Origin: Desulfobaccales bacterium
Lineage (GTDB): Bacteria > Desulfobacterota > Desulfobaccia > Desulfobaccales > 0-14-0-80-60-11
Assembly: GCA_052326585.1 (NCBI GenBank)
Contig: JBKQLU010000044.1
Coordinates: 92,682-156,681 of the forward strand
Reading direction: 5' to 3'
Length of the DNA: 64,000 bases
Numbering within the stretch: the first letter of the stretch is position 1; the number at the start of each line of letters is the position of its first letter. Shown here in pieces: positions 26,602 to 59,659 of this stretch. The translations under genes and the position numbers were made by a program. The notes under the pieces are model-generated. The model ran no database searches, was not told where the DNA came from, and was given only the letters and a program-made list of their open reading frames with translations.

Positions 26602-26630
26602 TTGACAGATTCTAAAATTATGACTAATCT
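26602..26630 (+). promoter_or_regulatory. Sigma70-like promoter (TTGACA-17-TAATCT)
   Basis: ttgaca at 26602-26607, a 17-nt spacer, taatct at 26625-26630, placing the TSS just before the riboswitch aptamer. Confidence 0.55.
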
Positions 26631-26635
26631 ACTAC

Positions 26636-26720
26636 CACAGTGAAAAGCCAAACCTGCCGCAAGGTAGGGACGGAAAGCCACGGGTCTTTTAATTCGAGAG
26701 AGATAGCCGGGCTGCCCGGT
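26636..26720 (+). promoter_or_regulatory. GEMM-I class cyclic-dinucleotide riboswitch (c-di-GMP-I type)
   Basis: AAAAGCCAAACC-[CCTGCC GCAA GGTAGG hairpin with GNRA tetraloop]-GGGACGGAAAGCC-ACGGGTC...GCCGGGCTGCC matches the GEMM-I core (GGCAAACC...GGGACGCAAAGCC...CGGG). The two deviations are reciprocal G/C swaps. Confidence 0.6.
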
Positions 26721-26743
26721 TGGAGGGGGCAGGCCGGTTTTTT
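26707..26743 (+). terminator. Intrinsic terminator (riboswitch expression platform)
   Basis: CCGGgCTGCCC-ggttggagg-GGGCAGgCCGG followed by TTTTTT. The 5' arm overlaps the 3' conserved strand of the aptamer. Confidence 0.6.
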
Positions 26744-26868
26744 ATTGCCCCTGAATAAAAAGGAATAAGGGAGTGACCGGCTGAAGGGATTTATAAAAAG
26801 CGAGTTCCCGGATTTTAAGGGAAGGAAAGCGAACAGAGAAGACCAAGCAAGATGAGAAGGAGCACGCC

Positions 26869-27546
26869 ATGAAGAAAGCGGGAATATTGCTAGCGGTCTT
26901 GCTGGTGGTGGTAGGGTTCGCGGCTCAGGCGAATGCAGCTATCATCATCAACCCTGCGAGCGGAGGCGAGCCGAATCTTTGGGACATCTCCACGGGTTGG
27001 GGCTTTACGGTTACCCAAACCCAATTGGAGAACGCCACCACCTCGGAAACCCTGCCCGCAGGCAGTTACACGGTCATTGATCTTGCCAGGTATGCGGGCA
27101 ACGACAACGACGGAGGCTTCTACACCGGAATCGGCAGTGTCCCGGCACACACCGCCACCTTGGCCTCCATCTCGGCCACGGCAGAGGTTGACCCGGACCC
27201 CAACGGCTATAATTCGGCGGTAAGCATTACGTTTAACCCAACCTCCACCTTCGGCTTTTATAACAAAGACATGAGCAACCTTATCCTGGGCACTACCCAG
27301 AACCAAAACGCGGGAAGCCAGTCCAATGGATATATCTTCAATCTAGCATCGATCAATCCCGCCTATGCCGGTGACTACCTGGTTGCCTTTGAGGATGGCG
27401 ATGGGCACCCGCCTTTAAACGACATGGACTACAACGACCTCGTGTTCGCGGTGCAGGTCAATGCCGTCCCGGTCCCTCCCTCTCTGCTCCTCTTCGGCTC
27501 CGGCCTCCTGGGGCTGACTGGCTGGAGGTGGTTCCGGAAAAGTTAA
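26869..27546 (+). CDS. PEP-CTERM-anchored secreted protein with DUF4114-like domain
   Basis: Signal peptide MKKAGILLAVLLVVVGFAAQANA, a DUF4114-like YLVAFEDGDGHPPLNDMDYNDLVFAV, and C-terminal VPVPPSLLLFGSGLLGLTGWRWFRKS (PEP-CTERM layout of motif, TM helix, basic tail). AGGAG SD. Confidence 0.8.
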   Translation: MKKAGILLAVLLVVVGFAAQANAAIIINPASGGEPNLWDISTGWGFTVTQTQLENATTSETLPAGSYTVIDLARYAGNDNDGGFYTGIGSVPAHTATLASISATAEVDPDPNGYNSAVSITFNPTSTFGFYNKDMSNLILGTTQNQNAGSQSNGYIFNLASINPAYAGDYLVAFEDGDGHPPLNDMDYNDLVFAVQVNAVPVPPSLLLFGSGLLGLTGWRWFRKS

Positions 27547-27572
27547 CCAGCCATCGTCTTCAGCAAACTCTA

Positions 27573-29057: not shown

Positions 29058-29651
29058 ATGAACAGCGGTTTTTGTATATGGCTGACTGGGCTGAGTGCCT
29101 CGGGAAAAACCACCATTGCTAAGCTGGTGAAAAATGCTCTTCTATCCAGAGGGTTAAAGGTAGAGGTCTTGGATGGAGATGTGATCCGAAGGAACCTTAG
29201 CGAAGGCTTGGGATTTAGCCGTGCTGACCGGGAAATCAATTTACGGCGGATAGCTTTTGTGGCAGAGCTTTTGGTGCGCCACGGAATAGTAGTGGTGGTT
29301 GCGGCGATCACGCCTTATCAATCTATCCGTGAAGAAGTGCGGAGTACCATCGGTGAATTCTTTGAGGTTTATCTCAATTGCCCTTTGGAAATTTGCATTC
29401 AACGTGATCCTAAGGGCCTTTACAAGAAGGCGCTATCAGGCGAAATTCGGAATTTTAGCGGGATAGGTGACGTATATGAAACGCCGAGGCATGCGGATAT
29501 TGAATTGAAGACGCATTTGGAAAGCGCGGAAAATTGTATGCATAAAATTATTAAAACCATAGAAATCCTTAATAAAATCCCTCCAAAGGAGGATGGTTTT
29601 TTGGAAAAAGACAGCGATTTTTTCGAAAAACGCCAAATCATTTTAGATTGA
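29058..29651 (+). CDS. cysC: Adenylyl-sulfate (APS) kinase
   Basis: IWLTGLSASGKTTIA P-loop, LDGDVIRRNLSEGLGFSRADREINLRRIAFVAELL, GLYKKALSGEIRNFSGI. Confidence 0.92.
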   Translation: MNSGFCIWLTGLSASGKTTIAKLVKNALLSRGLKVEVLDGDVIRRNLSEGLGFSRADREINLRRIAFVAELLVRHGIVVVVAAITPYQSIREEVRSTIGEFFEVYLNCPLEICIQRDPKGLYKKALSGEIRNFSGIGDVYETPRHADIELKTHLESAENCMHKIIKTIEILNKIPPKEDGFLEKDSDFFEKRQIILD

Positions 29652-29769: not shown

Positions 29770-31800
29770 ATGGACAAATTTCAGATCATCACCTTAACCC
29801 CGTCAGGCTTCCCCAATGCTACGATAGCCATTGCCGGCTGTCGAGCTGACGGATTGGGGGTGTTAGATTTGGAGTATTGCCCGCACGCCCAGGCAGCTAA
29901 TGAAGCCATCAAGTCCCTCGCCGGTAACACCAGGAGTTCCTTCGGCGTTAAGTTCGCTGGGAATGATGTGGAACTCATAGAAGAGATCACTTCTAGCCCC
30001 CCAGAAAATCTGGACGTTGTCATCATAGGACGCATCGACCTGGACCAATTAAAGCGGCTCGTAGAAACGCAAAGCTTTAAGGGCTTCAGAGTTTTGCTTG
30101 AATGCACGTCATTGTCCGAGGCTCGCCTTGGAGAAGAGGCAGGGGTTGCGGGAGTTATTGCCAAGGGGCATGAAGCAGGCGGGTGGGTAGCTCAGGAAAC
30201 CACCTTCATTTTACTCCAGCAATTTCTCCATAGCCTCTCCATTCCGGTTTGGGCCCAGGGAGGTATAGGTCAACATACGGCCAGTGCCTGTTTTGCTGCG
30301 GGAGCGGCCGGGGTGATTTTGGACAGCCAATTGACCCTCACCCGGGAGTCTCCCCTTCCCGAAGCTATTAAATCGAGAATTGCGAACTTTGATGGCAGTG
30401 AAACCATTTGTCTTGGAGAGACATTGGGAGTACCCTTCCGGGTCTGCTCACGCTTGGGAACTCCGTTGATCAAGGAGTTGCAAGAATTTGAAAAACAACT
30501 AACCCGCGAGGGAACCGCTACGAGCGAGGGCTTGGCCCAATTCCGCCGCGCCATCGCTTCCCAGGTAGATTGGCAATCTCCGGAAAATAACCTCGTTCTT
30601 TTCGGGCAGGATATTGGGTTCGCAGCTCCTTTGGCCCACAAGTTTGAGACCGTTGGAGGGATTTTAGCAGCCATTCGGCAAACCATCAAAGGCAACTGTC
30701 AGGCGGCGGCGACTAACCAGCCATTGGCCCAAGATTCTCCTTTGGCCCGGTCCCATGGTACCAGCTATCCAATCGTTCAGGGGCCCATGGCCCGGGTAAG
30801 TGATAATCCAGCCTTCGTGGCTGCGGTGGCCAAGGGAGGAGCTTTGCCGTTTGCGGCGGCGGCCTGGATGCAAGCCCCTGAATTAAAGACCTTGCTTCAT
30901 CAGACCAAAACTCTCTTAAAAGACCAGGCCTGGGGGGTTGGCTTGTTGGGATTTCTGCCCCAAGAGGTATATTCCGAGCAAATCAAGGTAATCCTCGAGT
31001 TTCGGCCTCGTTTTGCTTTGATCGCCGGCGGACAGACCTATCAAGTTAAGCAATTGGAACAGGCGGATATTGCAACCTACGTTCATATCCCTACGCCAGG
31101 ATTACTTCGGATGTTCTTGGCCGAAGGGTTGAGCAGATTTGTCTTTGAAGGTCGCGAGTCCGGCGGGCATGTGGGACCTTTCTGTAGCTTTGTGCTTTTT
31201 GAAACAGCGATTAATGTGCTCTTGGAATCACCCGCGGTTAACAAGGCACCGGAGAATTATCATATCTTGTTCGCCGGCGGCATCCATGATGACTTGTCTG
31301 CCGCAATGATCGGAGTCTTGGCTGGCCAATTGATTGAGCGGGGCATCAAGGTAGGCCTCCAAATGGGTACCGCGTATCTTTTCACCGAGGAAGCGGTGTC
31401 CAGTGGAGCCATCGTCCGGACTTTCCAGCAAGAAGCCCTGCAATGCAACTCCACCACCTTGCTAGTTTCAAGTCCTGGCCATGCTGATCGTGTCATCGAG
31501 ACCCCATTCGTCCAGGTTTTCAACCAGGAAAGATGCTTGCAATCTGCATCAGGTGCCACGGTGGAGGCAATGCGCAACTCCCTGGACCGCATCAAAATAG
31601 GGCGATTGCGAATTGCCACCAAGGGTATCGCCAGAAATCCTAACCATAAAGATAATCCGCAAACGCCGAAGTTTATCAACCTGAGCGAGAACAAACAGCG
31701 GGCGCAGGGGATCTACCTGATTGGACAACTGGCTGCCATGCGGAGCCAGGTTGGCACCATTGCTTCCTTGCATCATGACATTTCCACCCTTGGAACAGCT
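29770..31800 (+). other. Domain: two tandem nitronate-monooxygenase/PfaD-like TIM-barrel (enoyl reductase) modules
   Basis: The first module (aa ~1-300) is divergent, with GGW in place of GGH. The second (aa ~330-680) is canonical trans-ER/PfaD-like. Confidence 0.65.
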
Positions 31801-34800
31801 CGAATCGACCAAAGTTGGCAAGAATGCTCCGAAGCTTATGCGCCTAGCGAGGAATCAGAGCCAGCGGATGTCGCCATTATCGGCATGGCCTGTCTGCTGC
31901 CCCGGGCTTCCAACCTTCAGGCCTACTGGGAAAACATTCTTAATAAGGTTAATGCCATCAAGGAAATTCCTGCCGAGCGTTGGGATTGGCGCCCTTACTA
32001 TGACCAGGATCGGGCCACCCGAGACAAAATCTGTTCAAGGTGGGGCGCGTTCATAGATGATATTCCTTTTGATCCAACGGCCTATGGCATGCCCCCCAAT
32101 TCTCTTTCTTCCATTGAGCCTTTGCAGCTTCTGACCCTTGAAGTCACCAAATGGGCCTTGGCAGATGCGGGGTATGCAAAACGGCCATTCCGTCGTGACC
32201 GCACCTCCGTTGTCCTTGGGATTAGCGGGTCCGGGGAACTCGCCCAGCTTTACAGCCTCAGGACCGCATTGCCCCAATTCTTCGGGGACCGATCCCGGGA
32301 TATACTGACCCATTTCGATGGGGTCCTGCCAGAATGGACAGAGGACACCTTCCCGGGCATTTTGATGAATGTCGCGGCGGGGCGTATCGCCAATCGGTTC
32401 AATCTGGGGGGAGCCAATTGTACGGTAGATGCAGCCTGCGCATCATCCCTGGCCGCGGCTTACTGGGCGGTGAGGGAGCTGGAAGCCCGGGCCTGTGATA
32501 TGGCCATTGTGGGTGGTGCAGATTGCATGCAAAATCCCTTCACCTATATGTGTTTTTCAAAGACCCAGGCCCTGTCGCTTCAGGGAACCTGTAACTCGCT
32601 GGATGAAGGCGCAGATGGCATCGTGCTTGGTGAGGGAATCACCGTAATGATTTTCAAGCGTCTTGCTGATGCTGAGCGGGACGGCGATCGTATTTATGCG
32701 GTCATTAAGGGGGTGGGAGCTGCCAGCGACGGGAGGGAAAAGAGCCTTACCGCGCCCAATCGGGAAGGGCAGGTCCGGGCCCTTGAGCGGGCTTATGCCA
32801 AGGCTCGCGTATCTCCGGCCGCGGTGGGACTAATTGAAGCCCATGCAACCGGGACCACGGTGGGCGACCGCATTGAGATTGAGTCCCTCAGTAAAGTTTT
32901 CAAAGATGCCGGAGCCGGGAGCCGGGGTTGCGCCATTGGTTCAATCAAGTCGATGATCGGGCACACCAAATCTTCCGCCGGATTGGCGAGCCTCATCAAG
33001 ACCACCCTGGCATTGCATCATAAAGTTTTGCCGCCGACGCTGGGAGTGGCAAGGCCTAACTCCGTCCTCCTTCTCCCTGATACCCCCTTCTATGTCAATA
33101 CCGAGTCACGCCCCTGGCTGAATGCTACGGAGAATCAGCCTCGCAGGGCGGGAGTCAGCGCTTTCGGCTTTGGGGGTACCAATTTCCATGTGGTCCTGGA
33201 AGAATATACGAGGAATTATCTCGACCAGCAGGGCTGTGCATCATTCCAGGATTGGCCGGTTGAGCTGTTTTTCTGGGAAAGAGGCTCTCGTCAGGAATTG
33301 GTGGAAGCCCTCGCTGCTTTTGAAGAATCATTGCGCAGCGGAGTCAACTCATCCCTTGGCGATCTGGCTTTTATGCATTTTACGGATCAGAGAAGAGCGC
33401 CTGCCGGAACGGAAGCACCTTTACGCCTGGCTGTGGTTGCCTCTTGTCGCAAAGATTTGCAAGGCAAATTAGCCAAGGCCAAGGAATCTTTGTCGAATTT
33501 TGATTCAACCTTATGCGATCCAACGGGAATTTATTTTAATGAACGCCCGCTGGCGCCGGCAGGCAAGGTAGCCTTTCTTTTCCCCGGCCAGGGGTCTCAG
33601 TATATCAACATGTTGGCGGACCTTGCTATTCAATTCCCCGAAATCCGAGCCAGGTTCGAGCAAAGCGATCGTCTTCTGGCGGGAAGGTTTCCCAGGCCAA
33701 TGACCAGCTATGTATTCCCGCCTTCAGCTTTTACTGAGGAGGAAATTTCTTCCCAGAAAGAAGCCCTGGCAGATACCCTGGTATCCCAACCTGCGGTAGG
33801 AACCGCCGGCCTCGCCTTATTTCATTTCTTGCAATCCTTGGGAATCAAGCCGGAAATGGTGGCTGGTCATAGTTACGGGGAATATGTGGCCTTGAGTGCG
33901 GCCGGGGTACTGGACCCCGATGACCTGATCCTCCTTTCGGAGGCCAGGGCGCGTTTCATTGTCGATAGCGCCGGGCCGCATCCCGGGGCCATGGCGGCGA
34001 TCAACGCCAAGGTTGACACCGTTAGCGCTCACATAAAAGGACTGGAGGGAGTCTGGGTCGCCAATGTAAATGCGCCGGAGCAGACCGTTATTTCCGGAAC
34101 CCGACCAGGTGTAGATGCCGCCGTAGATATTTTTCGCAAGGAGAATATCCGGGCCCGGATTATTCCGGTGAGTTGCGCCTTTCATTCCCCGATCGTTTCC
34201 CCTGCCTGCCAGGCTCTTGAGGCGTACCTCTCTACCCTTAAGTTGGGCTCGCCCAGGTTAAGGATCTTTTCCAACAGCACGGCCGCCCCTTACCCGGTGG
34301 AGCCTGAAGCCATTGCCCATCAACTCGTGAAACACTTGGAAAGTCGGGTGGAGTTTGTCCAGGAAATTGCCGCCATGTACGAAGATGGAGCCCGCATCTT
34401 CTTGGAAGTCGGGCCGGGCCGGGTATTAACAGACCTTGTGGGGCAGATTTTAAACCACCGTCCCCATCTGGCAGTGGCTAGCAACCCGGCCGGGCGATCA
34501 GGACTGGTGAGTCTGCTGCACGCTGCAGCTCAATTGCTGGCACATGGTGTTTCCGTCAACTTGGAGAAGATTTTCCAAGGCAGATTTTTTAAAAAGGTTG
34601 AGGCCACAGCGCCTGACCAGGATCAGATGCGAACTTCCTCAACCTGGATGGTGAATGGCGCCAAGGCCAGGCCTTTCAAGGAATCCGCCGCCTCAAGTGG
34701 CGGGATCAGGATTACCCCATTTCATTTTGTAGATACTAAAGGAACGAGAGCAACAGCGGCAATCTCAACCTCGGGATCTTTAAGAGGGGAAGGTGGCCGT

Positions 34801-37800
34801 AAACCCGTAAGCCTGTCTGGTTCAGGCTGCGATGCCTTGCCGGCTTCATCGCAGGATGAGCCTCCAAATAATCAGCCGGATCAGGTCATGCTCCAGTATC
34901 AACGTCTTATGCAGCGTTTCCTGGAAGCCCAGAAGGCCGTAATGCTGAAGTATCTCGAGGTTGCTGGTCAGACGCCGGTTCATTTCCAGGAGGGCAACAC
35001 ATCCGTCGCTTCGGTTGCGTTTAAAGAGGCGGCGGTGCCGCCGCTCTTGGGGGGGGAATCTGATACCCGCGGGTTAAGCCAGCCAAAATCATCTGACGTG
35101 AAGCAGGCGCCAGTTCCGGGGGGGATAGAGATAACCGCGCCTATCCTGTCTTACAACCAGCCCACTGCCAATCAGGAAGAGTTGAGCTCGACTCTTCTTA
35201 AAATCGTGAGCGAGCGAACCGGTTATCCCCCGGAAATGCTGGGCCTGGATTTGAGCCTGGAAGCGGATTTGGGCATCGATTCCATAAAAAGGACGGAGAT
35301 CATAGGCCATTTTCTGCAGTGCATCTTCCCGCTGGAGGACGGTGGACCTCCCGAAGAATTGACGGAGTTGAGCCGGGTAAATAGTTTGGGCGAGATTATC
35401 GAGCAGGTTGCGGCCTGTCGCATAAATTCTAGCCTGAGCGCCGCCATAATCCCATCTCCAGCGCCGCCCGCTATTTCTTTAATATCTCCCACTTCCTCTC
35501 AGGCTCAGGAACTTTTGCCGCGCTTCACTTTGACGGCGGTGCCCGCACCGGTCCCCACCGGTTCCGTACGCCTGGCTCCCGGGCGACTGGTGCTGATTAC
35601 CGATGATGGCCGGGGTATTGCCGCAGCCCTGGGGGAAAAATTACGGCAATACGGCTTAAAGACTGCTTTAGTGCGATTGGCTGGTGGCAGAACCACTGAC
35701 ACGGAATACTGTCTTGCGGATATTTCATCAGCAAGTTTGGCAAGCCTCTTGGAGACTATGCGGCGAGAGCAGGGACCAATTGGCGCCTTGGTTCATCTGC
35801 TGCCCTTGAGACCTTGGACCTCTTATGATGAACTTGATCTGGCAGGCTGGCGGAGTCGCTTGCAAGAAGACATTGTCGCACTTTATCAGCTCCTGAAATT
35901 GACAGCCCCGGATCTCAAGGAGGCGGCAGGGGCGGGCGGCGCCTGGGTGGTGTCTGCTTCCGGCATGGGAGGATATTTCGCCAGCGATCCTCTGCAGCAA
36001 ACAGATTTTTTCCCTGGACAAGGCGGTGTCGCCGGTTTGTTGAAGACGGTGGCGATAGAATTACCTGAAGTCCGAGTGAGGTGTGTGGATCTAAGTTTGG
36101 ACGAAGGGAATGCCGTGCTGGCGGAGTGTCTTCTCTCGGAGATCGAGGCTGGAGACGAAATGCTGGAGATAGGGTATCGTCATGGACAACGCCTGACTTT
36201 AGGTCTGCAGGAGATGCCCCTCTCAGCTCGCCAGGGAAATGGACTTCAGGTTGATTCCTCTTCAATCATCCTGGCTACCGGCGGCGCCCGGGGAATAACC
36301 GCCGCAGTGACCCTGGAAATGGTACGCAAGTACCAACCAATTCTGTTATTAGCGGGGCGGGCGCCCTTACCCCCAGAAAATGAAGGGGCCGAGACTGCGG
36401 GCTTGACCCAGCCCCAAGAATTGAAAGCTAGTCTGGTTGAGAGCAGAAGGCGCCAGGGGCAATCCATCAACCTCCCGGAGGTGGAAGCAGCTTACCGCAA
36501 TCTTCTCAAGGAAAGGGAAATTCGAGGCAACCTTGCCGCCTTACGCGCCGCAGGCTCCCAGGTGGCGTATTTTCAAGTGGATGTCCGAGATCCAGTCGCC
36601 TTCGGAGACCTCCTGGATCACATTTATAGCCATTACAGCCGGCTGGATGGCGTTATCCATGGGGCTGGCATCATTGAAGACAAAATGCTCCAGGATAAAT
36701 CCCGGGACTCTTTTGACCGAGTCTTTGGAACCAAGACAGAGAGCGCCTTTATCCTCAGTCGAAAGCTAAACCCTGAAACCCTCAAATTTCTAGTGCTCTT
36801 CTCCTCTGTGGCTGGGCGCTTTGGGAGCCGCGGCCAGAGTGATTATACTGCTGCCAACGAAGTGTACAACAAACTGGCTGTATACCTGGACCGGAAGTGG
36901 CCCGGGAGGGTGCTGGCCATCAACTGGGGCCCCTGGAAAACCGCTGGCATGGCATCGGCTGAAGTGCAGCGGCAGTTTCAAGAACGGGGAGTGCAGTTGA
37001 TAGAACCGGCTGCCGGGGCCAGGTCTTTCGACCTGGAGCTGCATCGGGGCTGCAAAGGTGAAGGAGAAGTAGTGATCGGTGACGGTCCTTGGCGGCAGCA
37101 AGCCTTTTCGCACCCAATTGACGTTGGTATCGCCGCCTCCCTACCACTGTTGGAGCAGTTCACTACATACCAGAAGCTCAATGGGCAGCTTGAGATCGTC
37201 AGACGTTTAGATCCGGATCATGATCTTTACTTGATGGATCATCGCCTGGACTCCAAGCCGGTGTTACCCGCAGCCATGGCCATAGAATTGATGGCTGAGT
37301 CGGCCCAAAAAAACTTTCCTGAGTGGCAAGTGGTCGGTCTCAAAGATGTGCGAGTATATAAAGGGATCGTCTTGGTTGATGGCTTTTGCGATATCCATAT
37401 TCTCATAGGCACGCCTGGGGCCTGCCCCCAGTCGTCAGCAAAAATGGAACTCGAGGTTACTATTAAGGGGACCTCCCGGCCAGAGCCGATATTTTACCAG
37501 GGAACGGTGATAATGAGTCCGGGGCCTATTTCCCCGGAAGCACATCATTTACCATCGGCGGAAGAATTCCAGGATTTCGGGATAGCCGCGGCTGAAGCTT
37601 ACCGCAGATTTACATTCCACGGCCCGCGTTTCCAAGGTATCCGAAGCATCTTGGGGATCAGCGAGAAAGGGATGCTCGCCACGGTGGCGCCTTCTTCGCC
37701 CCAATCCTGCCTGGCCGGTAACCCCTCTGGTCCGTGGCTTATCGACCCGGTGGCGATTGATTGCGGCCTCCAGATGGCCCTGCTCTGGGGGCGGACTTAT

Positions 37801-38061: not shown

Positions 38062-38065
38062 CAGG

Positions 38066-50886: not shown

Positions 50887-51672
50887 ATGGAATCCATTGA
50901 TCAACGATCGCTATCCGGACAGACAGCCATCGTCACGGGGGGGGCCAGTGGCATAGGACGGGCCGTCTCCCTTGGTCTAGCCCGGCTAGGGATAGAGGTG
51001 GCCATCGTAGACCTGAACGAGCGATTACTAAAAGAAACCGCCCAGGAAGTAAAAAGATTAACAGGCTCCCCCGAGCCCTTAATATTGAATAAGGACATCC
51101 GGCGTGAAACCGACATGGAGGACATGGCCCGGGTTACTCTGGAAAAGTTCGGCAGTATCGATATTCTGGTGCATAGTGCCGCCATCTTGCGTGGCAAGGG
51201 CAGCGGACCCAAAATGATGGTAGATGTCGAAGCGGCGGAATGGGACGAAGTTGTGGGCACGAATCTGAAAGGAACCTTCCTCTGTAACCGGGCCGTCTTG
51301 CCGGCCATGATCAAGCAGAGGCGAGGGCAGATCATTAATATCTCGTCTACCTCGGGATTGAGGGGGCGTGCCCTCGATTCGGTCTATTGCGCCTCAAAGT
51401 TCGGGGTTATGGGTCTATCCCAGGCCTTGGCGGAGGAGGTTCGGCCATATGGTATCAGGGTTCAGGTAGTTGCGCCCGATGCTATTGATACTCCTATGTG
51501 GGACCAGAACGGTCCAATTCGTCCTCCCGGCGATTCCTTACCGCCGTCCCGGGTGGCGGATCTGATCGCCTACATGGTAGCCTTGCCTCTGGATGCTGTG
51601 CTCGGTGACGTGGTAATCGCCCCGTTTCGTTTCCGTCGCCGCAAGAGACAGGATGCCACTGATAAGATTTAA
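50887..51672 (+). CDS. SDR-family oxidoreductase (FabG-like)
   Basis: TAIVTGGASGIG, NISSTSG, YCASKFGVMGL. Confidence 0.88.
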   Translation: MESIDQRSLSGQTAIVTGGASGIGRAVSLGLARLGIEVAIVDLNERLLKETAQEVKRLTGSPEPLILNKDIRRETDMEDMARVTLEKFGSIDILVHSAAILRGKGSGPKMMVDVEAAEWDEVVGTNLKGTFLCNRAVLPAMIKQRRGQIINISSTSGLRGRALDSVYCASKFGVMGLSQALAEEVRPYGIRVQVVAPDAIDTPMWDQNGPIRPPGDSLPPSRVADLIAYMVALPLDAVLGDVVIAPFRFRRRKRQDATDKI

Positions 51673-51715
51673 TCGAACCCCTATTATGAAGATTAATAAA
51701 AAGGAGAGCTACCCG

Positions 51716-52687
51716 ATGAATTTAAATCACACTCCATTTAATTCTTCGTTTTTTGTTGTCTTGGTCATCGGCGTGGTGCTGCTGTTACAGACCTCGGCCT
51801 CGGCCCAGGGAGGGTCGTTTGCCCTGGGGCCAGGCAATTATGACCGTACCATCAACTTTGGAGGCATGGAGCGTTCCTATGTAGTGCATGTTCCCGGGAG
51901 TTATACTGCAAGCAGGGCGACCCCGGTAATCCTCAACTTTCACGGTGGCGGCGGCAATCCTAATAGTGAGAGAACGATCTCCATGATGGATCAGGCCTCT
52001 GAGCGTTACGGTTTTATTGTCGTATATCCACAGGGCACCGGTGCCAAAGGGCGCCTCATCAATCCACATGGATATACCTGGAATGCCGGCACCTGTTGTG
52101 GGTGGGCGATGGAAAATGGTATTGACGATGTTGGCTTTACCAATGCGATGCTCGACGCCCTGGAGCAACAGTTCAATATTGATAAGAGACGAGTTTTTGC
52201 TACTGGTATATCCAACGGCGCCATGATGTGCTACCGTCTGGCTTGTGAACTCTCTAACCGCATTGCCGCCATCGCCCCTATCTCCGGTACCATGGGTGTA
52301 ACTAGCTGTAATCCGGTCCGACCGGTTTCGGTGATACATTTCCATGGCACCGCTGATATGTTTGCTCCATACGCCGGCGGCAGAGGGCCGCGTTCTCTCC
52401 CGGGAGAGTCTTTTCAGTCAGTCGATCAAACGATCGCTTTTTGGCTCAAAAGGGATAAGATCAGCGGCCCACCCAGGACCGTCACACGGGGCCAGGCCAG
52501 CGGTTCTTATTATGGCCCCGGAGCGCAGGGCACGGAGGTGGCTCTGTGGACAATTCAGGGAGGAGGCCATACCTGGCCTGGTGGCAGATTCGGTATTTTG
52601 GGGAAGAGATTCCTTGGTGAGTTAACTCAAGACATTTCCGCCAATGACCTCATGTGGGAATTTTTTCAACGGCACCCACTGAAATAG
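51716..52687 (+). CDS. Secreted PHB-depolymerase-family esterase (LpqC-like)
   Basis: Start chosen at the ATG with an AAGGAG SD (MNLNHTPFNSSFFVVLVIGVVLLLQTSASAQG signal). HGGGGN, NAGTCCGWA, GISNGAMM nucleophile elbow, HFHGTAD. Confidence 0.8.
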   Translation: MNLNHTPFNSSFFVVLVIGVVLLLQTSASAQGGSFALGPGNYDRTINFGGMERSYVVHVPGSYTASRATPVILNFHGGGGNPNSERTISMMDQASERYGFIVVYPQGTGAKGRLINPHGYTWNAGTCCGWAMENGIDDVGFTNAMLDALEQQFNIDKRRVFATGISNGAMMCYRLACELSNRIAAIAPISGTMGVTSCNPVRPVSVIHFHGTADMFAPYAGGRGPRSLPGESFQSVDQTIAFWLKRDKISGPPRTVTRGQASGSYYGPGAQGTEVALWTIQGGGHTWPGGRFGILGKRFLGELTQDISANDLMWEFFQRHPLK

Positions 52688-52769: not shown

Positions 52770-53567
52770 GTGAGAACCGTGAATAGGAGGATGGCGGACA
52801 GGATCATCAGGTATTATGACGACAGCATGTATCATGAAAGGTTGCACGAGTACTTTGGCTTTAGCGACTTCTTTAACTATGGTTATTGGGACGACAACAC
52901 CTTGGACCAAAAGGGGGCTTGCGAAAACTTGGTCGACAAGCTTCTCTCCTTTATTCCGACCAAGGACGGAAACATTCTTGATGTCGCCTGCGGCAAAGGG
53001 GAAGTTGCTCATTATCTGCTGAAATATTTTGAACCGCAGAACATTACGGGAATCAATCTGTCTCAGAAGCAACTGGCGACCTGTCGGCAAAAGGTACCGG
53101 GGGGAACTTTTCTTTGTCTGGATGCCGCAAATATTGATTTTGAAAATGAATTATATAATAATATCATCTGTATAGAGGCAGTCTTTCATTTTCGTACGAG
53201 AGAAAAGTTCCTGCAACAGGCCTACCGGGTGTTAAAGCCCCAGGGATACCTGGTTCTGACCGATATTCTTTTGACTGATTGGGGAAAGAAGCACCGCTTA
53301 TGGTGGTTTGACCAAGAAAACGCGCTATTGAATGATCTCAAGGCATACTCAGAGCTATATCAGCGTATCGGCTATCAGGGGGTTGAGATCCTGGATGCCA
53401 CTAAGGAATGTTGGGAGGGTTATTATTCCAATCTTGCCCGCTATTGCTTTGAGAAACTGGACAAGAAGGAATTCGATCTAGGAGCTTTGAACAAGATCGC
53501 CGTTAATATATTCAGGAGAATTCCGGCAACCCGCTATTACTTGCTGGTTGTGGCCAGGAAGGCCTAA
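52770..53567 (+). CDS. Class I SAM-dependent methyltransferase
   Basis: ILDVACGKGEVAHYL, IICIEAVFHF, LKPQGYLVLTD. The start may be the Met at 52791. Confidence 0.82.
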   Translation: MRTVNRRMADRIIRYYDDSMYHERLHEYFGFSDFFNYGYWDDNTLDQKGACENLVDKLLSFIPTKDGNILDVACGKGEVAHYLLKYFEPQNITGINLSQKQLATCRQKVPGGTFLCLDAANIDFENELYNNIICIEAVFHFRTREKFLQQAYRVLKPQGYLVLTDILLTDWGKKHRLWWFDQENALLNDLKAYSELYQRIGYQGVEILDATKECWEGYYSNLARYCFEKLDKKEFDLGALNKIAVNIFRRIPATRYYLLVVARKA

Positions 53568-53646: not shown

Positions 53647-55089
53647 ATGGAGGAGCGACTGGCCATGAAGCAACCACAATGGGTGCCAAGAATCCATGCC
53701 CTGGGAACCAGCCCGCAGGCCAGACTGGCCCTCGCTGTAACGCACATCAAAAATAGTGAATATCAAGAGGCCTTGAGTGAACTCCGGGCCGCCTTGAAAA
53801 CCAACCCATACCATGCCGATATCCATCTAACTCTCGCCTGGGTCTATACCGCGTTGGACCGGGGAGAGGAAGCCATTGAAGCCGGCCGATCTGCCCTCAA
53901 ATACAACCCCAAGCTGGAACAGGCCCATCTAATCTTGGCACATAACTATAAAAAGCTGGACTATGCCCCTGAGGCCTTGGAGGAGTGTCGCCAAGCCGTA
54001 GAGATCGACCCGAAAAATTTTTATAGCTATCTTCTGTTAGGCGAATTGACTTTTTCGGAAAGGCTCTATGAGGAATCCATCTATGCCTTCAATTCCGCCC
54101 TTAAATACAACCCCCAATTAGAAATGGCACATTATAAACTGGCTAATATCTACCAGCAGAAAAATCAAGAAAATGAAGCCATCGCCGAAATAGAAGCCGC
54201 CCTGCAAATCAATCCAGCCTTGGCTCGTAACCAAATACTGCTGGGCGATATGCTTTTAGCTCGGCATGATTATGAGGCCGCACTGGGCCAGTATAAGGAG
54301 GCGGTGCTGGTTAGTCCGTACATGGCGGAAGCCCATGCCAAAGTCGGCCAATCCTATCTCCATTTGGGATTCAGTCATGAAGCTTTGCAAGCCTTTCGGG
54401 TAGCGCTGCGATTGAACCCGAAACTCGCTGAAGCTCACCTGGGATTGGGGAAAATCTATCTTTCCTTCCGGAAAAGCTCGCCGGCACTGCAAGAATACCA
54501 AGCAGCGTTGGCCCTAAATTCCCAATTGCTGGAGGCACGCGCCGGCTTAGGAGATGTGTTTACTCTGGGAGGACGCTATCAGGAGGCCATCACGGAGTAT
54601 CGGATGGCTCTGCGGCTTATCCAGAAGGGAAGTCTTCGGGGAGAACACTACGCGGCGCAAGGCGAGTATCTCCAGGCAATCGTGGAATTTCGCCACGCTT
54701 TGGATCTTGGGGCCGAGATAATTCTGCCGGACTCGGAATCCGGCAAGCTCATAAAAATGCCCTACCCGGTAGCAGACGAGCGGCGGCGGTACGAACGGTT
54801 CCTCCTCAGGATGCCGGTGGATGTCCGGGAAGGTCCGGGAGCCTATTCTTCCGCCATCATTTTAAATGTCTCCAAGCGGGGTCTGGCGCTCGAAACTACC
54901 TGGGAAATGCCAATGGGCTTCCAAGTGGAAATAATTACCCCCTGGATTCAAAATGATCGAAAAATAGCAGTCCCCGCACGGGTTGTCAGGCTGGAAAGAA
55001 AGGATTCAGGGGAGCATTACCGGTTGGGGTTGGAATTGTCATCCGAAGAGGCAGATAGTAGAGATTGGCAAGACTTTCTTGTTGCCTGA
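53647..55089 (+). CDS. TPR-repeat protein with C-terminal PilZ domain
   Basis: About 9 TPR repeats (aa ~30-340), then RRRYERF (RxxxR, aa 380-384) and NVSKRG ((D/N)xSxxG, aa 407-412). Confidence 0.82.
   Translation: MEERLAMKQPQWVPRIHALGTSPQARLALAVTHIKNSEYQEALSELRAALKTNPYHADIHLTLAWVYTALDRGEEAIEAGRSALKYNPKLEQAHLILAHNYKKLDYAPEALEECRQAVEIDPKNFYSYLLLGELTFSERLYEESIYAFNSALKYNPQLEMAHYKLANIYQQKNQENEAIAEIEAALQINPALARNQILLGDMLLARHDYEAALGQYKEAVLVSPYMAEAHAKVGQSYLHLGFSHEALQAFRVALRLNPKLAEAHLGLGKIYLSFRKSSPALQEYQAALALNSQLLEARAGLGDVFTLGGRYQEAITEYRMALRLIQKGSLRGEHYAAQGEYLQAIVEFRHALDLGAEIILPDSESGKLIKMPYPVADERRRYERFLLRMPVDVREGPGAYSSAIILNVSKRGLALETTWEMPMGFQVEIITPWIQNDRKIAVPARVVRLERKDSGEHYRLGLELSSEEADSRDWQDFLVA
54775..55086 (+). 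other. Domain: PilZ (c-di-GMP receptor signature intact)
   Basis: ERRRYERFLLRMPVDV...ILNVSKRGLALE...ARVVRLE...YRLGLEL. Confidence 0.75.
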
Positions 55090-55236: not shown

Positions 55237-57525
55237 TTGGCGACTCAACTACCTAAATTTCGAAATGATTTTGAGGTTGTCCCGCGACTTGTCGAAGGAG
55301 AAGGCCTCCGGTATATTCTTAAAGATGTTCACAACGACAGAATTTTTGCTTTTGGAGAAGAAGAGTATTTTATCTGCCGGCAATTTGATGGGAAGACATC
55401 ACTTCCTGTCATTCAGGAGTCATTCTATCAGCAATTCCATACTCCCCTAGAACTTGAGCAACTTGAAGCTTTCGTCAGGCAACTTGCCAGTATGGAGTTG
55501 TTGGAATACGCCCTGGCGCCCGAAGAAATTCCCTGGCACTTTCCGATCTATTATAAGAAGCATATTCTCGGCAACCCCGACCGTTGGCTGCATCGACTGG
55601 CCCCCGTGTTCTCCTGGTGTTTCACCCGGACTTTTATGGTTGGGGTCGCCTTCTTCATGCTCATGTTGTCGATGCTCCTGAGCAATTATTTTTCCTTCTT
55701 TCACCATGAAGTGAAACATACCTTGTGGAACCCGGGTCCCTTTGTATTGGAAACGCTGTTGGGGCTTTTTGTCGTCAATCCAATAGGGGAGTTCGGCAAG
55801 GCCTTCGCTTTAAAGCATTGGGGAGGTAATATCCCCGAGGTCTGTGTGGGCTTATCCTACCGCTTGGTACCCACCTTTCATTTTGACCTCATGGATCTCT
55901 GGATGAAAAAAAGGGCGGTGCAACTGAAAGTTTTGTCGGCGGGCTTGATTGCGCAGCTTTTGCTCGTGGCCATCGGCATGCTGGGCTGGAGGATCACCGC
56001 TCCCTGGACCGGTATGCATACCTTTTGGGTAATCTTCTCGGTGGCGGCCCAATTTTTTTTCCTCATCAACTTTCTTCCTCTTTTACCCAGGGACGGCTAT
56101 TATCTGCTGGGAGCCTGGTTAGAAGTTCCGGACCTATTTTTACGCTCCCGTTCTTTGGTGGAAGCCTGGTTTTTCCGCAGGCCCCTGCCGGAGCCGGTAA
56201 CCTCCAGGCAAAGACTGTGGTACAAGGTCTTTGGAGGTTTATCAATCGCCTTTCTTTTTTCGTTCTGGCTGTTGGTGCTTGGAATCATCGGTTACTGCCT
56301 GATCTGGTATTGGAATTTGAAGGGATTAGGCGCATGTTTATTTTTAATGATACTAGGACTACGATATGGTGATGCTATGAAACAGCTAGGTTCAAGACTT
56401 GTTTCTCCCCAAGGGCCTTTTTCCCATCAAAAACGCTTTTTTACCAAGAAGCGCCTAATCTGGCTGGGAGTGCTGGTCCTTTTGCTCATCCTCTTTTTTA
56501 TTCCCTATCCCTATGATGCCGGTGGCGATTTCTGGATTTTGCCGACTCATCAGCTATCCCTCCGGGCGGTAGTGTCGGGGGAAATTGAAGAGGTAATGGT
56601 ACATGAAGGCGACTGGGTTCAAAAAGGGCAGCTCCTGGCCCTCCTCCTGGACAAGGACCAAAAGGCCAAGATGGAAAGCGCCAAGGAAAACCTGACTGCG
56701 GCTCAGGAAAAGCTCAACATGATGAGGATAGGGGCCAAACCGGAGGAGATTGCCAAGGCTGAGCAAGAAGTCAAGTTGGCCCGAACGGCTCTGGCGTATA
56801 GTACCGTTGAAGCCAACCGCTACACGAAAATGTATCAAGAAAAAGCGGTTTCGGAAAAAGATTATCTAGATTACTTGAAGACCCGGGATGAAGACCGGGA
56901 GAAAGTCATCCTGGCCCAGAAGAATTTGGAATTGGTGAAGGTTCCTTTCCGGCCGGAAGAAATCAGGGCCCAAGAGGCCGAAGTGCGCCGCCTGGAAGCG
57001 GAGTTGACCCTGGCCGAAAAGAATCTCCATCTTACTAAAATCTGCGCCCCCGCTGAAGGCAGGCTCATAACTGCCCGTCCTTTAGAAAAGGTCGGCCAGT
57101 ATCTAGATGTGGGCGACATGCTGGGCGTAATAGAAGACGCCCGCATTATCGAAGCTGAAATTGAGATTCTCGAAAATGATATCACTCTGGTCAGGTTGGG
57201 GGCCCGGGTGAAGATCAAGACCTGGGCCAGGCCCACCAAAACTTATATCGGGACAGTAACGGCCATTGCTCCCGCGGCTTATAATGAGCCGCGGCATCGG
57301 GTGGAGCGGGTCCTGACCGAAAAGGAATATCGGGGTATGCAGGTCCTGCCGCAACAAGGAGGGGTAATTCGGGTTATCTCCGAATTTCCTAAGACCGACG
57401 GCTTGCTCCACACCGACATGACCGGCTATGCCAAGATTCACACCAGATATATGCCGTTCGGCGTGGCTTGGACCCGCTGGCTGATGCGCTTAATCTTGGT
57501 TGAAATTTGGTCGTGGATACCGTAG
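55237..57525 (+). CDS. Fusion protein: soluble N-domain + M50/S2P-like polytopic membrane domain with degenerate active site + HlyD-type periplasmic adaptor
   Basis: TTG start. The membrane core reads NPIGEFGKAFALKHWGG where M50 proteases have HExxH, yet it keeps the NFLPLLPRDGYY (NxxPxxxxDG-like) motif. The C-terminal ~330 aa are HlyD/MFP (lipoyl-like VSGEIEEVMVHEGDWVQKGQLLALL, long coiled coil, APAEGRL). Confidence 0.75.
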   Translation: MATQLPKFRNDFEVVPRLVEGEGLRYILKDVHNDRIFAFGEEEYFICRQFDGKTSLPVIQESFYQQFHTPLELEQLEAFVRQLASMELLEYALAPEEIPWHFPIYYKKHILGNPDRWLHRLAPVFSWCFTRTFMVGVAFFMLMLSMLLSNYFSFFHHEVKHTLWNPGPFVLETLLGLFVVNPIGEFGKAFALKHWGGNIPEVCVGLSYRLVPTFHFDLMDLWMKKRAVQLKVLSAGLIAQLLLVAIGMLGWRITAPWTGMHTFWVIFSVAAQFFFLINFLPLLPRDGYYLLGAWLEVPDLFLRSRSLVEAWFFRRPLPEPVTSRQRLWYKVFGGLSIAFLFSFWLLVLGIIGYCLIWYWNLKGLGACLFLMILGLRYGDAMKQLGSRLVSPQGPFSHQKRFFTKKRLIWLGVLVLLLILFFIPYPYDAGGDFWILPTHQLSLRAVVSGEIEEVMVHEGDWVQKGQLLALLLDKDQKAKMESAKENLTAAQEKLNMMRIGAKPEEIAKAEQEVKLARTALAYSTVEANRYTKMYQEKAVSEKDYLDYLKTRDEDREKVILAQKNLELVKVPFRPEEIRAQEAEVRRLEAELTLAEKNLHLTKICAPAEGRLITARPLEKVGQYLDVGDMLGVIEDARIIEAEIEILENDITLVRLGARVKIKTWARPTKTYIGTVTAIAPAAYNEPRHRVERVLTEKEYRGMQVLPQQGGVIRVISEFPKTDGLLHTDMTGYAKIHTRYMPFGVAWTRWLMRLILVEIWSWIP

Positions 57526-57583
57526 AAAGGTGTAGCTGGCCCACCCTGATTTTAAGGGATTGTGCCTGAAAGGAGGGGGACCC

Positions 57584-59005
57584 TTGACTGATACCCGCAC
57601 GGCAAACTTCCGGGGAACAGAATACCGACCGGGAAGATCTCTGCAGCCCGGCATCGTCTCTGCGGCGCTTCTGCTGGCAATCATTCTGGCACTGGCGGTC
57701 ACCGCCTCCAGGGCTCAGGAGCGTACCCAGGTAATTTCCATTGAAGATGCTTACCGTATGGCTCTTCAAAGCCATGAACTGATTCTCATTTCCGAGAAAG
57801 AAATTGATAAAAGCAAGCTGGGTACGAAGAAAGCCCTGGCCATGATGTTGCCTCACGCCGATTTATCAGGCACTTATCAGACGGTCGATAAGGCCATCAC
57901 CCAGTCTAATATACTTAACGTCATCAATATCTTGCCCAAAGACCAGACCATGGGAGATATCAAGGTCACGAACTCGATCTATAATCCTAATTATTTCCCG
58001 GCCCGGCGCCAGGCTAATGAGACGATCGATAAAACCACCAATAATTGCTACCAGGTCATCCAGGATGTCCTCCTCCAGGTGGGTAAGGAATATTATCTGG
58101 TCTTGCGCGCCAATGAATTGGTGCAGAATTCCAAAGGACTGATCCAGACAGCCCAGGAAGCAGTCCGGGAAAGTAAAGTAAAATTTGCCGCCGGCGCCGT
58201 CACCGAAGATGTGCTGCTCGGGTCCTTAATGGACTTGGCCACCATGGAAAATAAACTCATTAGTGACTCCAACCGGTTGAGACTGGCCAAGGATGACCTC
58301 AGGAATCTTATCAGTCTGAAAACCGCGAACTTCGAGGTCGCCAAGCCGGCGCATTTGACGGAACCGAATCAAAGCTACGAGACCTTACTCGGTTCCGCCT
58401 ATGATCACCGGTTTGACCATAAGATGTCGATATCAGATGTGGAGCTCGCTAAAAGCGGGGTGGAAGTGGTGAAAGCCCATTTTCAGCCGTCGCTGGATGT
58501 CAGTTGGGAGTACTATTCCGTCCACCATCCGAGATACGACCAGGACGCCAACAACTGGGCAGCAGTTGCCTCTGTAACGTTCCCGTTTTTGGAAGGAGGT
58601 CTGCGGGTCTGGGAACTCAGGGAGGCCAAGGAGACTTTGGAACAAGCCAAATTGTCCCTGGCAGACAAGAGGCGCAGTATCAGAATGGAAGTCGACAGCG
58701 CCATGCTTACGGTCTACAACAATAAAAGCCTGTTGCTAAAAATGCAGAGCCAGATAGATTTGGCCCAAAAGAATTATGAGATTGTTTTTTCCAAGTTCAA
58801 GCATGGAGCTGCGACCATTGTGGATTTGAGTCAAGCTTTGTCCGCCTTGGGGAGCGCTAAAACCGATCTTATCAACAAGACCTATGACTACCAAACTTCG
58901 CTTTTGGATTTGCAAAAGGCCACCGGCATTTTCGTTTTAGATTTTATCACAGGGTTGCGTCTTCAGGGGAATTCTATTGCTCCTGCCATTAATAATAAGA
59001 GGTAG
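57584..59005 (+). CDS. TolC-family outer-membrane efflux protein
   Basis: TTG start with an AGGAGG SD (the ORF track starts at 57560). Signal-like AALLLAIILALAVTASRAQE, and two OEP repeats with long helical segments. Confidence 0.82.
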   Translation: MTDTRTANFRGTEYRPGRSLQPGIVSAALLLAIILALAVTASRAQERTQVISIEDAYRMALQSHELILISEKEIDKSKLGTKKALAMMLPHADLSGTYQTVDKAITQSNILNVINILPKDQTMGDIKVTNSIYNPNYFPARRQANETIDKTTNNCYQVIQDVLLQVGKEYYLVLRANELVQNSKGLIQTAQEAVRESKVKFAAGAVTEDVLLGSLMDLATMENKLISDSNRLRLAKDDLRNLISLKTANFEVAKPAHLTEPNQSYETLLGSAYDHRFDHKMSISDVELAKSGVEVVKAHFQPSLDVSWEYYSVHHPRYDQDANNWAAVASVTFPFLEGGLRVWELREAKETLEQAKLSLADKRRSIRMEVDSAMLTVYNNKSLLLKMQSQIDLAQKNYEIVFSKFKHGAATIVDLSQALSALGSAKTDLINKTYDYQTSLLDLQKATGIFVLDFITGLRLQGNSIAPAINNKR

Positions 59006-59098
59006 CCCAGCCCTAACATGACCTTGCGGTTCGTTTATGAAGAGCAGGCAGACCCTGCGGGGTTTCTTTAAGTCATAATTCTTACCCACTTCACAGGA

Positions 59099-59659
59099 GT
59101 GATGCATAAGAAAATGGACAGGCAAAAATTGATCGTTATCGTCACCCTGGGTTTTTTCTGGATTTGCGCCCAAACTCTGGGTGGCTGTGTGGTTTTTCCA
59201 GCGGTGGCCATCCGCGGCGCCGCTCCCTATGAGGGAAACCTGGCTCAGACCGATCTCCCCGAACTGGCTCACCGGGAGGATGTTATCGATCTTGCCTGCC
59301 GCCTTGGAGAATGCCTCGGTTACGCGGTTTCCTTGAAAACCGATGACACCATTATCTTGTTATACGAGACGTCTGAGATTAAAGAGCCAGTTACCGGCGA
59401 TTATCAATCGACTAAAATATTCGTTTATAAAGTGAAACCATTTACGTTAAATTCTGCTCAATCCAAGGATAAAGACTTTGAAAGAATATATCGGAAAATC
59501 ATGCCGACCCAACACACAGAGACAACGGTGCATCTTGCTGTTTATGATGGTGGTGTTTATCCTGCCGGTGTCCAAGAAAGTGTCAATAACATAATGGAAG
59601 ATTTTAAAACAAGATTGCTCTTTTTGGCCTCGCGCTCGCCGTCTGACAAGGGCCTTTAG
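59099..59659 (+). CDS. Hypothetical lipoprotein
   Basis: Lipobox TLGGC after a hydrophobic h-region. No recognisable family. Confidence 0.55.
   Translation: MMHKKMDRQKLIVIVTLGFFWICAQTLGGCVVFPAVAIRGAAPYEGNLAQTDLPELAHREDVIDLACRLGECLGYAVSLKTDDTIILLYETSEIKEPVTGDYQSTKIFVYKVKPFTLNSAQSKDKDFERIYRKIMPTQHTETTVHLAVYDGGVYPAGVQESVNNIMEDFKTRLLFLASRSPSDKGL

Follow-up and report, generated by a model that had tools for sequence, protein, structure and literature searches.

Can a bacterium place the release and export of a lipid under the direct control of a second messenger? Cyclic di-GMP (c-di-GMP) gates polysaccharide synthases, adhesins, pili and flagella post-translationally and, to our knowledge, its known links to secondary metabolism are transcriptional. 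The question is raised by a locus in a metagenome-assembled genome (MAG) of a Desulfobaccales bacterium (Thermodesulfobacteriota), of which we analysed a stretch of 64,000 nt (the window; proteins MGP8050895 to MGP8050902 and onward). It carries genes for two polyketide synthase (PKS) megasynthases, tailoring enzymes and an export module, and two of its proteins, an alpha/beta hydrolase and a tetratricopeptide repeat (TPR) protein, end in PilZ domains. An earlier reading of the sequence (the original prediction) had seen here an undescribed, c-di-GMP-wired island for polyketide-lipid synthesis. From our analysis, we propose with moderate confidence that this is a conserved secondary-lipid cluster in which c-di-GMP gates release and export post-translationally through two added PilZ domains. 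The novelty lies in the conserved pair of PilZ fusions, in an accessory gene set that is now defined and in an export module without a pump.

The two PilZ domains carry this proposal. Both score above the gathering threshold of the Pfam model PF07238 (43.2 bits for the hydrolase fusion and 42.3 bits for the TPR fusion, against 22.5), and the intact signatures that the original prediction had read in them are conserved family-wide. A review of the PilZ domain gives the refined binding motif as [D/N]hSxxG, together with RxxxR (bioRxiv 10.1101/814665), and the hydrolase-PilZ motif agrees with this refined form. All 55 full-length members of the hydrolase-PilZ family (35-98% identity) have R293, R297, S322 and G325, with either N or D at position 320; conservation extends to Ser94 and His260 of the hydrolase and to two candidate Asp residues. 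The AlphaFold2 model of the protein (pLDDT 80.6, pTM 0.68) consists of the hydrolase domain, a low-confidence linker (residues 286-294) and a beta-barrel with a terminal helix. Its PilZ region folds as a six-stranded barrel followed by a C-terminal helix (strands 303-376, helix 384-393; block-mean pLDDT 68-90 over residues 301-390). In a neighbour-joining tree of the hydrolase domains, 52 of the 54 members of a single clade bear PilZ, and for this reason one ancient gain, stably retained, fits the distribution. One of the two PilZ-less exceptions is truncated exactly at RxxxR, and three divergent fusions place outside the clade.

Orthologues of the TPR protein with intact PilZ motifs are present in related loci (designated here by L and a number) L001, L003 (30% identity), L004, L096 and L097. 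Where both genes are visible, both bear PilZ in 6 distinct clusters and both lack it in 1, that of Halioglobus (L009), whose hydrolase has no PilZ and whose TPR orthologue stops after the repeats. The two PilZ domains of the window are 36% identical to each other (E = 1e-17). Searched alone against 1.84 billion representative proteins, the hydrolase PilZ gave only 26 matches at E <= 0.001, and 6 of the 10 nearest relatives that we scanned were TPR-PilZ proteins; a homologue search with the TPR-PilZ C-terminus returned 4 fragment matches from 44 candidates. Each of the two domains is the closest PilZ relative of the other among these proteins. Judged by their sequences, they are one sub-lineage duplicated within this system, paralogues that travel together, and therefore they are not independent devices. 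The count of "three independent devices" in the original prediction thus does not hold: two are paralogues and the third, a riboswitch, belongs to a separate unit, as described below. Among the matches listed in a genome-collection scan with the hydrolase-PilZ profile there were only PilZ-less relatives, at 41% identity or less; the PilZ-bearing subclade has so far been seen in MAGs and metagenomes, two of them assigned to Thermodesulfobacteriota. The literature searched contains no PKS or fatty acid synthase (FAS) cluster in which an alpha/beta hydrolase or a TPR protein carries a PilZ domain, and no characterised cluster with the gene content of this one, in agreement with the original prediction, which knew of no characterised PKS or PUFA-like pathway with built-in PilZ receptors.

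The genes around these domains are largely conserved as a unit. They form a run of 17 consecutive plus-strand genes at 28299-59659 (the island; Table 1), and the description of this run as same-strand genes with small gaps was borne out by the open reading frame (ORF) listing and by direct reading. The intergenic gaps are, in order, 153, 118, 4, 60, 26, 17, 25, 7, -4, 66, about -20, 82, 79, 147, 34 and 93 nt. The gap of about -20 nt is the junction between a short-chain dehydrogenase/reductase (SDR) gene and the esterase gene, and the true esterase start is probably later. We read directly the 4-nt spacer between the megasynthases PKS1 and PKS2 (38062-38065) and the ATGA overlap at 49993-49996; PKS2 has a further possible ATG start at 38075. 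Terminator-like structures within the island are not in excess (22, versus 20.3 in shuffles), which neither proves nor breaks an operon.

We compared all island proteins with 85 loci by tblastn. The order PKS1, PKS2, acyl carrier protein (ACP), alkaline phosphatase (AP)-family enzyme, hydrolase and MT770 (a 770-aa protein with a methyltransferase domain) recurs in Gammaproteobacteria (including Halioglobus japonicus), Desulfobulbaceae, Acidobacteriota, Planctomycetota (including Singulisphaera acidiphila), Paracoccaceae and Poribacteria; in these wider groups the hydrolase is about 285 aa long and always without PilZ. The complete order in the closest relatives is PKS1, PKS2, ACP, AP-family enzyme, hydrolase-PilZ, MT770, methyltransferase, SDR, SDR, esterase, methyltransferase, TPR protein and HlyD fusion. 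It is kept in L001, L004 and L003, whose hydrolase-PilZ proteins are 98%, 58% and 44% identical to that of the window, and also in L096 and L097. The original view of one conserved biosynthesis-plus-export cluster is upheld by this gene order, kept in relatives at these three distances and in metagenome loci.

Table 1. Features of the window, with positions counted from its first nucleotide
Feature	Position	Strand	Basis or remark
tRNA-Pro(GGG)	26052..26128	+	Where GC falls from ~0.63 to ~0.50
c-di-GMP-I clan aptamer and terminator-type platform	26638..26743	+	Aptamer 26638-26720; Rfam
Secreted DUF4114/PEP-CTERM protein	26869..27546	+	Gene most likely under riboswitch control
Small stand-alone sulfotransferase (ST1), 201 aa	28299..28904	+	Sulfotransfer_3, 49.6 bits; PRSGTS loop, binding 3'-phosphoadenosine 5'-phosphosulfate (PAPS)
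Adenosine 5'-phosphosulfate (APS) kinase (APSK)	29058..29651	+	201 bits; PAPS from APS
Megasynthase 1 (PKS1): enoylreductase (ER; NMO)-ketosynthase (KS)-acyltransferase (AT)-ACP-ketoreductase (KR)-dehydratase (DH)	29770..38061	+	Pfam, motifs
Megasynthase 2 (PKS2): KS-AT-ACP-DH-phosphopantetheinyl transferase (PPTase)	38066..43570	+	Pfam, motifs
Free ACP-like protein, 104 aa	43631..43945	+	FESID serine; third gene of catalogued triad
AP-superfamily (Phosphodiest) enzyme	43972..45552	+	130 bits; conserved core gene
Alpha/beta hydrolase with C-terminal PilZ	45570..46754	+	Ser94, His260, conserved Asp118 and Asp208
PilZ of the hydrolase fusion	46440-46697	+	RKYQR...NISMNG; RxxxR 46446-46460, NISMNG 46527-46544
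MT770, C-terminal S-adenosylmethionine (SAM) methyltransferase domain	46780..49092	+	Pfam; conserved core gene
Methyltransferase	49100-49996	+	Domain scan
SDR, ketoreductase-like	49993-50820	+	Domain scan
SDR, ketoreductase-like	50887-51672	+	Domain scan
Secreted esterase, signal-peptide-like N-terminus	51653..52687	+	NCBIfam
Methyltransferase	52770..53567	+	Nearest, sub-threshold matches are lipid O-methyltransferases
Cytoplasmic TPR protein with C-terminal PilZ	53647..55089	+	PilZ 54778-55056; RRYER...NVSKRG
762-aa fusion: N-terminal HExxH/NxxPxxxxDG intramembrane-metalloprotease-like part and C-terminal HlyD-type domain	55237..57525	+	Polytopic ~aa 30-356; HlyD ~aa 437-696
TolC-family outer-membrane channel	57560..59005	+	OEP, 151 bits
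186-aa protein, LGGC lipobox-like N-terminus	59099..59659	+	Lipobox read by eye
TauE/SafE-family permease	60193-61317	-	Beyond the island
Second, larger sulfotransferase, 384 aa	61644-62798	-	Beyond the island
Na+/sulfate symporter	62818-63951	-	Beyond the island; near window end (64000)

What kind of product does the synthase core point to? The Pfam and NCBIfam scans confirmed every domain that the original prediction had named, except that the free ACP stayed below threshold in both (18 and 34 bits); here the call is supported by the FESID serine and by the place of the gene, which is kept in relatives. The KS domains of PKS1 and PKS2 both retain an intact Cys-His-His triad, so neither is a chain-length factor (CLF), and the KR and DH motifs are intact. 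PKS1 scores 1183 bits against the NCBIfam PfaA model (cut-off 1010). In the PPTase fused to PKS2 we read the motifs LSLTH (hShxH), GVDIE and WCAKEA; the (F/S)NxSH motif was sought in the PKS2 C-terminus and not found, LSLTH being there instead. In the ER region of PKS1, residues 1-640 (29815-31689) hold three separate NMO stretches and two FabK stretches, because of which this part may be duplicated or split.

This core has been seen before. In their supplement, Shulse and Allen (2011; PMC3098273) catalogued a "secondary lipid synthase" unit with the architecture ER-KS-MAT-ACP(1-3)-KR / KS-AT-PPTase / ACP (MAT, malonyl acyltransferase). They list the triad in Dinoroseobacter shibae, Gloeobacter violaceus, Frankia, Streptomyces avermitilis, Chryseobacterium and others, the Parvularcula entry having the first two genes only, and they give ER-KS-MAT-ACP-KR for Azotobacter ArsA and assign the hShxH motif, as against (F/S)NxSH, to the PPTases of Types M-T. 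The window core has both this triad architecture and the hShxH motif. It shares the triad, the integrated hShxH PPTase and the single-module iterative synthases with Types M-P, such as the Dinoroseobacter/Gloeobacter type, and with Azotobacter ArsA/ArsD. The synthase core is therefore an already catalogued class and no new type of PKS, so that "undescribed" was overstated for this part of the system. The window departs from this class in having one ACP per megasynthase (LGIDSIKR) and detectable DH domains, and in a fixed attached set comprising the AP-family enzyme, the hydrolase, a methyltransferase with a propeller-like part, the SDRs, the esterase and the export module. Its subclade further adds the two PilZ domains and the sulfation genes. 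Azotobacter Ars has a type III PKS partner, which the window cluster lacks, and relatives in Paracoccaceae and Shimia (L034, L035) point toward the Dinoroseobacter type, although they are only suggestive. The products of the class are uncharacterised except for Ars (the alkyl part of phenolic lipids), and we found none in the later literature searched. Compared with the canonical Pfa system (PfaABCDE), the window has a PKS1 score at PfaA level, a PfaD/FabK-like ER and the order KS-AT-ACP-KR; however, tandem ACPs, a CLF and PfaB are all missing, and in place of a separate PfaD and PfaE its ER and PPTase are fused into the synthases.

Among the accessory proteins, PDB sequence searches gave no match for the AP-family enzyme and, for MT770, matched the methyltransferase domain alone, weakly; the N-terminal 530 aa of MT770 had no Pfam or PDB match. 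This N-terminal part (46780-48370) contains about six repeats of the form hydrophobic-G-x-L-Y/F-x-G-T, a pattern that suggests a beta-propeller. The whole of MT770 is kept in every related cluster, including the PilZ-less ones. The esterase scores 171.7 bits against the NCBIfam model for the catalytic domain of extracellular type-1 short-chain polyhydroxyalkanoate (PHA) depolymerases (cut-off 150). This match may mean that the product is ester-linked or oligomeric, or that methyl esters are unmasked in an extracellular step.

We propose the following mechanism for the cluster. Going by domain content, the two single-module iterative megasynthases and the free ACP would build a long, largely reduced acyl chain. 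The SDRs, the three methyltransferases, the AP-superfamily enzyme and the PAPS-dependent sulfotransferase would tailor this chain, with the in-cluster APS kinase supplying the sulfotransferase. The alpha/beta hydrolase would be the only candidate for chain release or transfer, and the TPR protein, the HlyD fusion with its M50-like N-terminal part, TolC and the secreted esterase would handle export and maturation outside the cytoplasm. Binding of c-di-GMP to the two PilZ domains could then gate two checkpoints together, release and export, after translation. This gating is modelled on BcsA and Alg44 in polysaccharide secretion, where PilZ is likewise found on or beside a synthesis-export machinery with a HlyD-type membrane fusion protein (MFP), TPR proteins and an outer-membrane channel. 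The cargo differs, being polysaccharide there and a predicted polyketide or fatty-acid-type lipid here, and the window's PilZ domains sit on the hydrolase and on the soluble TPR protein, not on a synthase or MFP, giving two receptors per pathway. A PilZ motif pattern search of the 762-aa fusion found no match; unlike the PilZ-MFP of the Alg44 type, PilZ lies on the adjoining TPR protein. By analogy with BcsA and Alg44, and because the riboswitch on the neighbouring secreted protein is of the ON type, activation at high c-di-GMP would be favoured. A bolder form of the proposal, which we hold tentatively and put at somewhat less than an even chance, is that this is the first PKS/FAS-type pathway with built-in second-messenger receptors. 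A double PilZ checkpoint would let a sulfated, methylated long-chain lipid pass to the envelope or matrix only in the sessile, high-c-di-GMP state, and the lipid would leave by a pump-less M50-like/MFP/TolC export route.

Several points weigh against this proposal. The number of clusters in which both PilZ-type genes can be seen is small, and the PilZ domain tree is too short and poorly resolved on the order of duplication. Our check for sulfotransferase and APS kinase genes upstream of PKS1 leaves out the distant PilZ-type clusters L003, L004 and L097. In a Foldseek search against the PDB, the hydrolase fold matched generic esterases and lipases (top match PlaF) and gave no thioesterase-specific signal. 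Because of these generic matches, its role in chain release can only be inferred; the hydrolase-PilZ fusion is real, but "most plausible chain-release hydrolase", as the original prediction had it, was overstated. Domain scans found no ATP-binding cassette (ABC), resistance-nodulation-division (RND) or major facilitator superfamily (MFS) pump genes between 26.6 and 59.7 kb. Finally, the M50-like domain of the HlyD fusion resembles proteases that mature ribosomally synthesized and post-translationally modified peptides (RiPPs), which could point to a peptide cargo.

Is the export half then a machine of its own? The HlyD-type adaptor was correctly recognised from the start (its membrane-fusion domain matches HlyD_3 and HlyD_D23), but both the M50-like domain fused to it and the absence of an ABC, RND or MFS pump had been missed. 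This M50-like domain carries HEVKH and NFLPLLPRDG and matches the daptide and YydH/LiaK intramembrane metalloproteases of RiPP maturation (E = 2e-27 and 5e-9) below the cut-offs of those families; the N-terminal 438 aa of the fusion have no Pfam match. Of the parts of a tripartite efflux system, the MFP and the TolC channel are present and an inner-membrane pump is missing from the operon. The module of TPR-PilZ (its first gene), M50-like/MFP protein (763-767 aa) and TolC recurs in 8 loci (the window included, also L100 and L101). A separate machine, gated by c-di-GMP, that secretes or processes a peptide or protein and happens to lie beside the lipid genes would account for the protease matches, for the 147-nt gap ahead of the M50-MFP gene and for the different genes that the module follows in L100. 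We nevertheless consider it unlikely. In L100 (GCA_040755095.1, 1-17048) the module lies among homologues of MT770, MT265, MT298 and the esterase, as expected of the same system rearranged. It stands downstream of PKS genes in 6 clusters (28-98% identity), in L101 the next gene after it encodes a sulfotransferase of the ST1 family (42% identity), and its PilZ is a paralogue of that in the synthesis half. No precursor-peptide gene was evident on looking, although no systematic search was made. As to gene content, L100 has, before the module, four small methyltransferases, a radical SAM enzyme, an 836-aa CoA-transferase and the MT770 homologue, and then TPR-PilZ, M50-like/MFP, TolC and the esterase. 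The last gene of the island had been called a lipoprotein; the LGGC lipobox can be seen by eye, but the 186-aa protein has no family match in the Pfam and NCBIfam scans.

A lipid exported through an MFP and a TolC-type channel has a parallel in the heterocyst glycolipid system (hgl PKS, DevBCA-HgdD), where the long-chain lipid of the envelope is likewise the product of a PfaA-like synthase and exits by this kind of route. The window MFP is a weak match to the DevB family (56 bits). The heterocyst system also has a glycosyltransferase, an ABC ATPase/permease, a thioester reductase and developmental control, whereas the window has none of these and would instead have a sulfate/methyl head group and c-di-GMP control.

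The predicted sulfate rests on ST1 and the APS kinase. Sulfation genes recur in close relatives: the order is ST-APSK-PKS1 (ST, sulfotransferase) in L087 and ST-PKS1 in L086, and in four close relatives the sulfotransferase and the hydrolase-PilZ gene are on one contig. An ST1 homologue also lies within the PilZ-less cluster L006. A PDB sequence search with ST1 gave no match, and the literature searched holds no characterised cluster with a sulfotransferase, an APS kinase and a PfaA-like synthase. Desulfobaccales include sulfate reducers, which produce bulk APS for dissimilatory reduction, so that one in-cluster APS kinase would suffice to divert sulfur to PAPS. ST1-family genes occur elsewhere too. 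In L088 (7970-10573) one with 63% identity directly follows a 670-aa fusion of AP-superfamily and TPR parts, and an integrase and an IS1595 transposase are encoded in the same region. The adjacency hints that AP-family enzymes and this sulfotransferase family may work as a pair, independent of the PKS.

Sulfation could also be transient, as in CurM and the olefin synthases. A sulfated beta-hydroxyl would then be a leaving group, and release by the hydrolase with decarboxylative elimination would yield a terminal alkene or hydrocarbon. The co-occurrence of a sulfotransferase, a PAPS supply and a hydrolase with a PKS that has no thioesterase (TE) domain is what such a route would use, and the CurM precedent is summarised in PMC3908369. 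We find this improbable. ST1 stands alone as a small Sulfotransfer_3 protein, and ST and TE domains are missing from both megasynthases, as is the terminal ST-TE didomain of the CurM/Ols type; many PilZ-less clusters with the same hydrolase have no sulfotransferase within 10 kb; and a second sulfotransferase, a sulfate symporter and a TauE permease adjoin the cluster. The Swf cluster of sponge symbionts likewise has a mono-modular iterative PKS/FAS with a sulfotransferase and methylation, and an alkyl sulfate product has been proposed for it (PMC3908369). We considered the Swf cluster as a match and rejected it: SwfA is KS-AT-DH-ER-KR-ACP, SwfB a reductase-ST fusion and SwfC a radical SAM enzyme (PMC3908369), differing in order and partners, and Swf is without the PPTase fusion, free ACP, AP-family enzyme, hydrolase, PilZ and export module.

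The third c-di-GMP device of the original prediction was a GEMM-I riboswitch at the entry of the island. An aptamer of the c-di-GMP-I clan is indeed present, but its best Rfam model is the variant c-di-GMP-I-GGC (RF03167; 71.5 bits, threshold 59, E = 6e-15) and not the canonical family; an overlapping, lower-scoring match of the same clan was suppressed. The ligand-contacting nucleotides of the canonical family are G20, A47 and C92. At the position that a G distinguishes in the GGC-variant consensus, the aligned window sequence reads A (GGGACG-G-A-AAGCC), and for this reason the ligand pocket looks canonical and the RF03167 label is no call of specificity. Pairing is possible between CCGGGCUGCCC (26707-26717), in the 3' half of the aptamer, and GGGCAGGCCGG (26727-26737), behind which stand six U, to 26743. 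Since the folded, ligand-bound aptamer would block this terminator pairing, we infer an ON-type riboswitch that would govern the adjacent PEP-CTERM gene.

Might this riboswitch also drive the PKS island by read-through, placing three c-di-GMP devices on one pathway? The two are adjacent on the same strand, and in the relative with 98% identity a PEP-CTERM gene also adjoins the cluster, on the same 89-kb contig. However, the aptamer has a terminator platform of its own, and an 11-bp GC-rich hairpin with a U-run (27572-27600) follows 25 nt past the PEP-CTERM stop codon. From the PEP-CTERM gene to ST1 there is then a gap of about 750 nt, of which 27600-28299 (about 700 nt) holds no supported gene and which has a promoter-like site (10/12 matches) at 28067-28096. 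The Rfam riboswitch is absent from seven related loci (L086, L087, L003, L004, L006, L007 and L009), and in L087 the 10 kb upstream of the sulfotransferase hold unrelated genes. For these reasons, namely the aptamer's own terminator, the terminator after the PEP-CTERM gene and the absence in seven relatives, the riboswitch is a neighbouring unit, no conserved part of the cluster and not its entry switch, and we give read-through very little credence. A transposase remnant in the 27.6-28.3 kb gap (a 53-aa ORF at 27806-27967, from resemblance by eye) was considered and rejected, there being no Pfam match at E <= 1 and no plasmid blastn or tblastn match.

It is also very improbable that the PilZ domains have lost c-di-GMP binding and serve only as protein-protein adaptors, for instance by tethering the hydrolase and the TPR protein to one another or to the synthase: PilZ lineages without binding are known (bioRxiv 10.1101/814665) and two paralogous domains might interact, but those lineages lost the motifs too, whereas here RxxxR and [D/N]hSxxG are invariant in all 55 hydrolase fusions and intact in every TPR-PilZ examined, down to 30% identity.

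The surroundings of the cluster agree with the AT-richer block that had been noted. GC content is 0.57-0.70 upstream and 0.46-0.56 from about 26 kb up to the window end, and the tRNA-Pro(GGG) gene at the drop is probably the left edge of the lower-GC block; a tRNA gene at such a drop is the pattern expected of an island inserted at a tRNA. The 10 ORFs scanned upstream of the block are housekeeping genes, including those for a glycosyltransferase, MutL, Opp-type permeases, YjeF, a sigma-70 factor and EF-G. On the right, neither the lower-GC block nor the sulfur theme ends at the edge that was first drawn (59659): past it the minus strand carries the permease, the second sulfotransferase and the symporter, in convergent orientation to the cluster.

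What would this mean for c-di-GMP signalling and for the lineage? With conserved, motif-intact PilZ domains on a pathway hydrolase and on the head of a lipid export module, the making of lipids and polyketides would also come under direct second-messenger control. If the bolder form of the proposal is true, secreted lipids take their place beside polysaccharides, adhesins and pili among the direct outputs of c-di-GMP, and the M50-like/MFP/TolC module is a new export route without an ABC or RND pump; as an export design, the pump-less M50-like/HlyD/TolC module is unexplained in itself. With its accessory genes now defined, the cluster also offers a handle on widespread secondary lipid clusters that have stayed uncharacterised since they were catalogued in 2011, and the c-di-GMP level, as a natural switch, could serve to activate the pathway in a heterologous host. 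For anaerobic sulfate-reducer lineages, the finding would suggest lipids as regulated components of the matrix or envelope.

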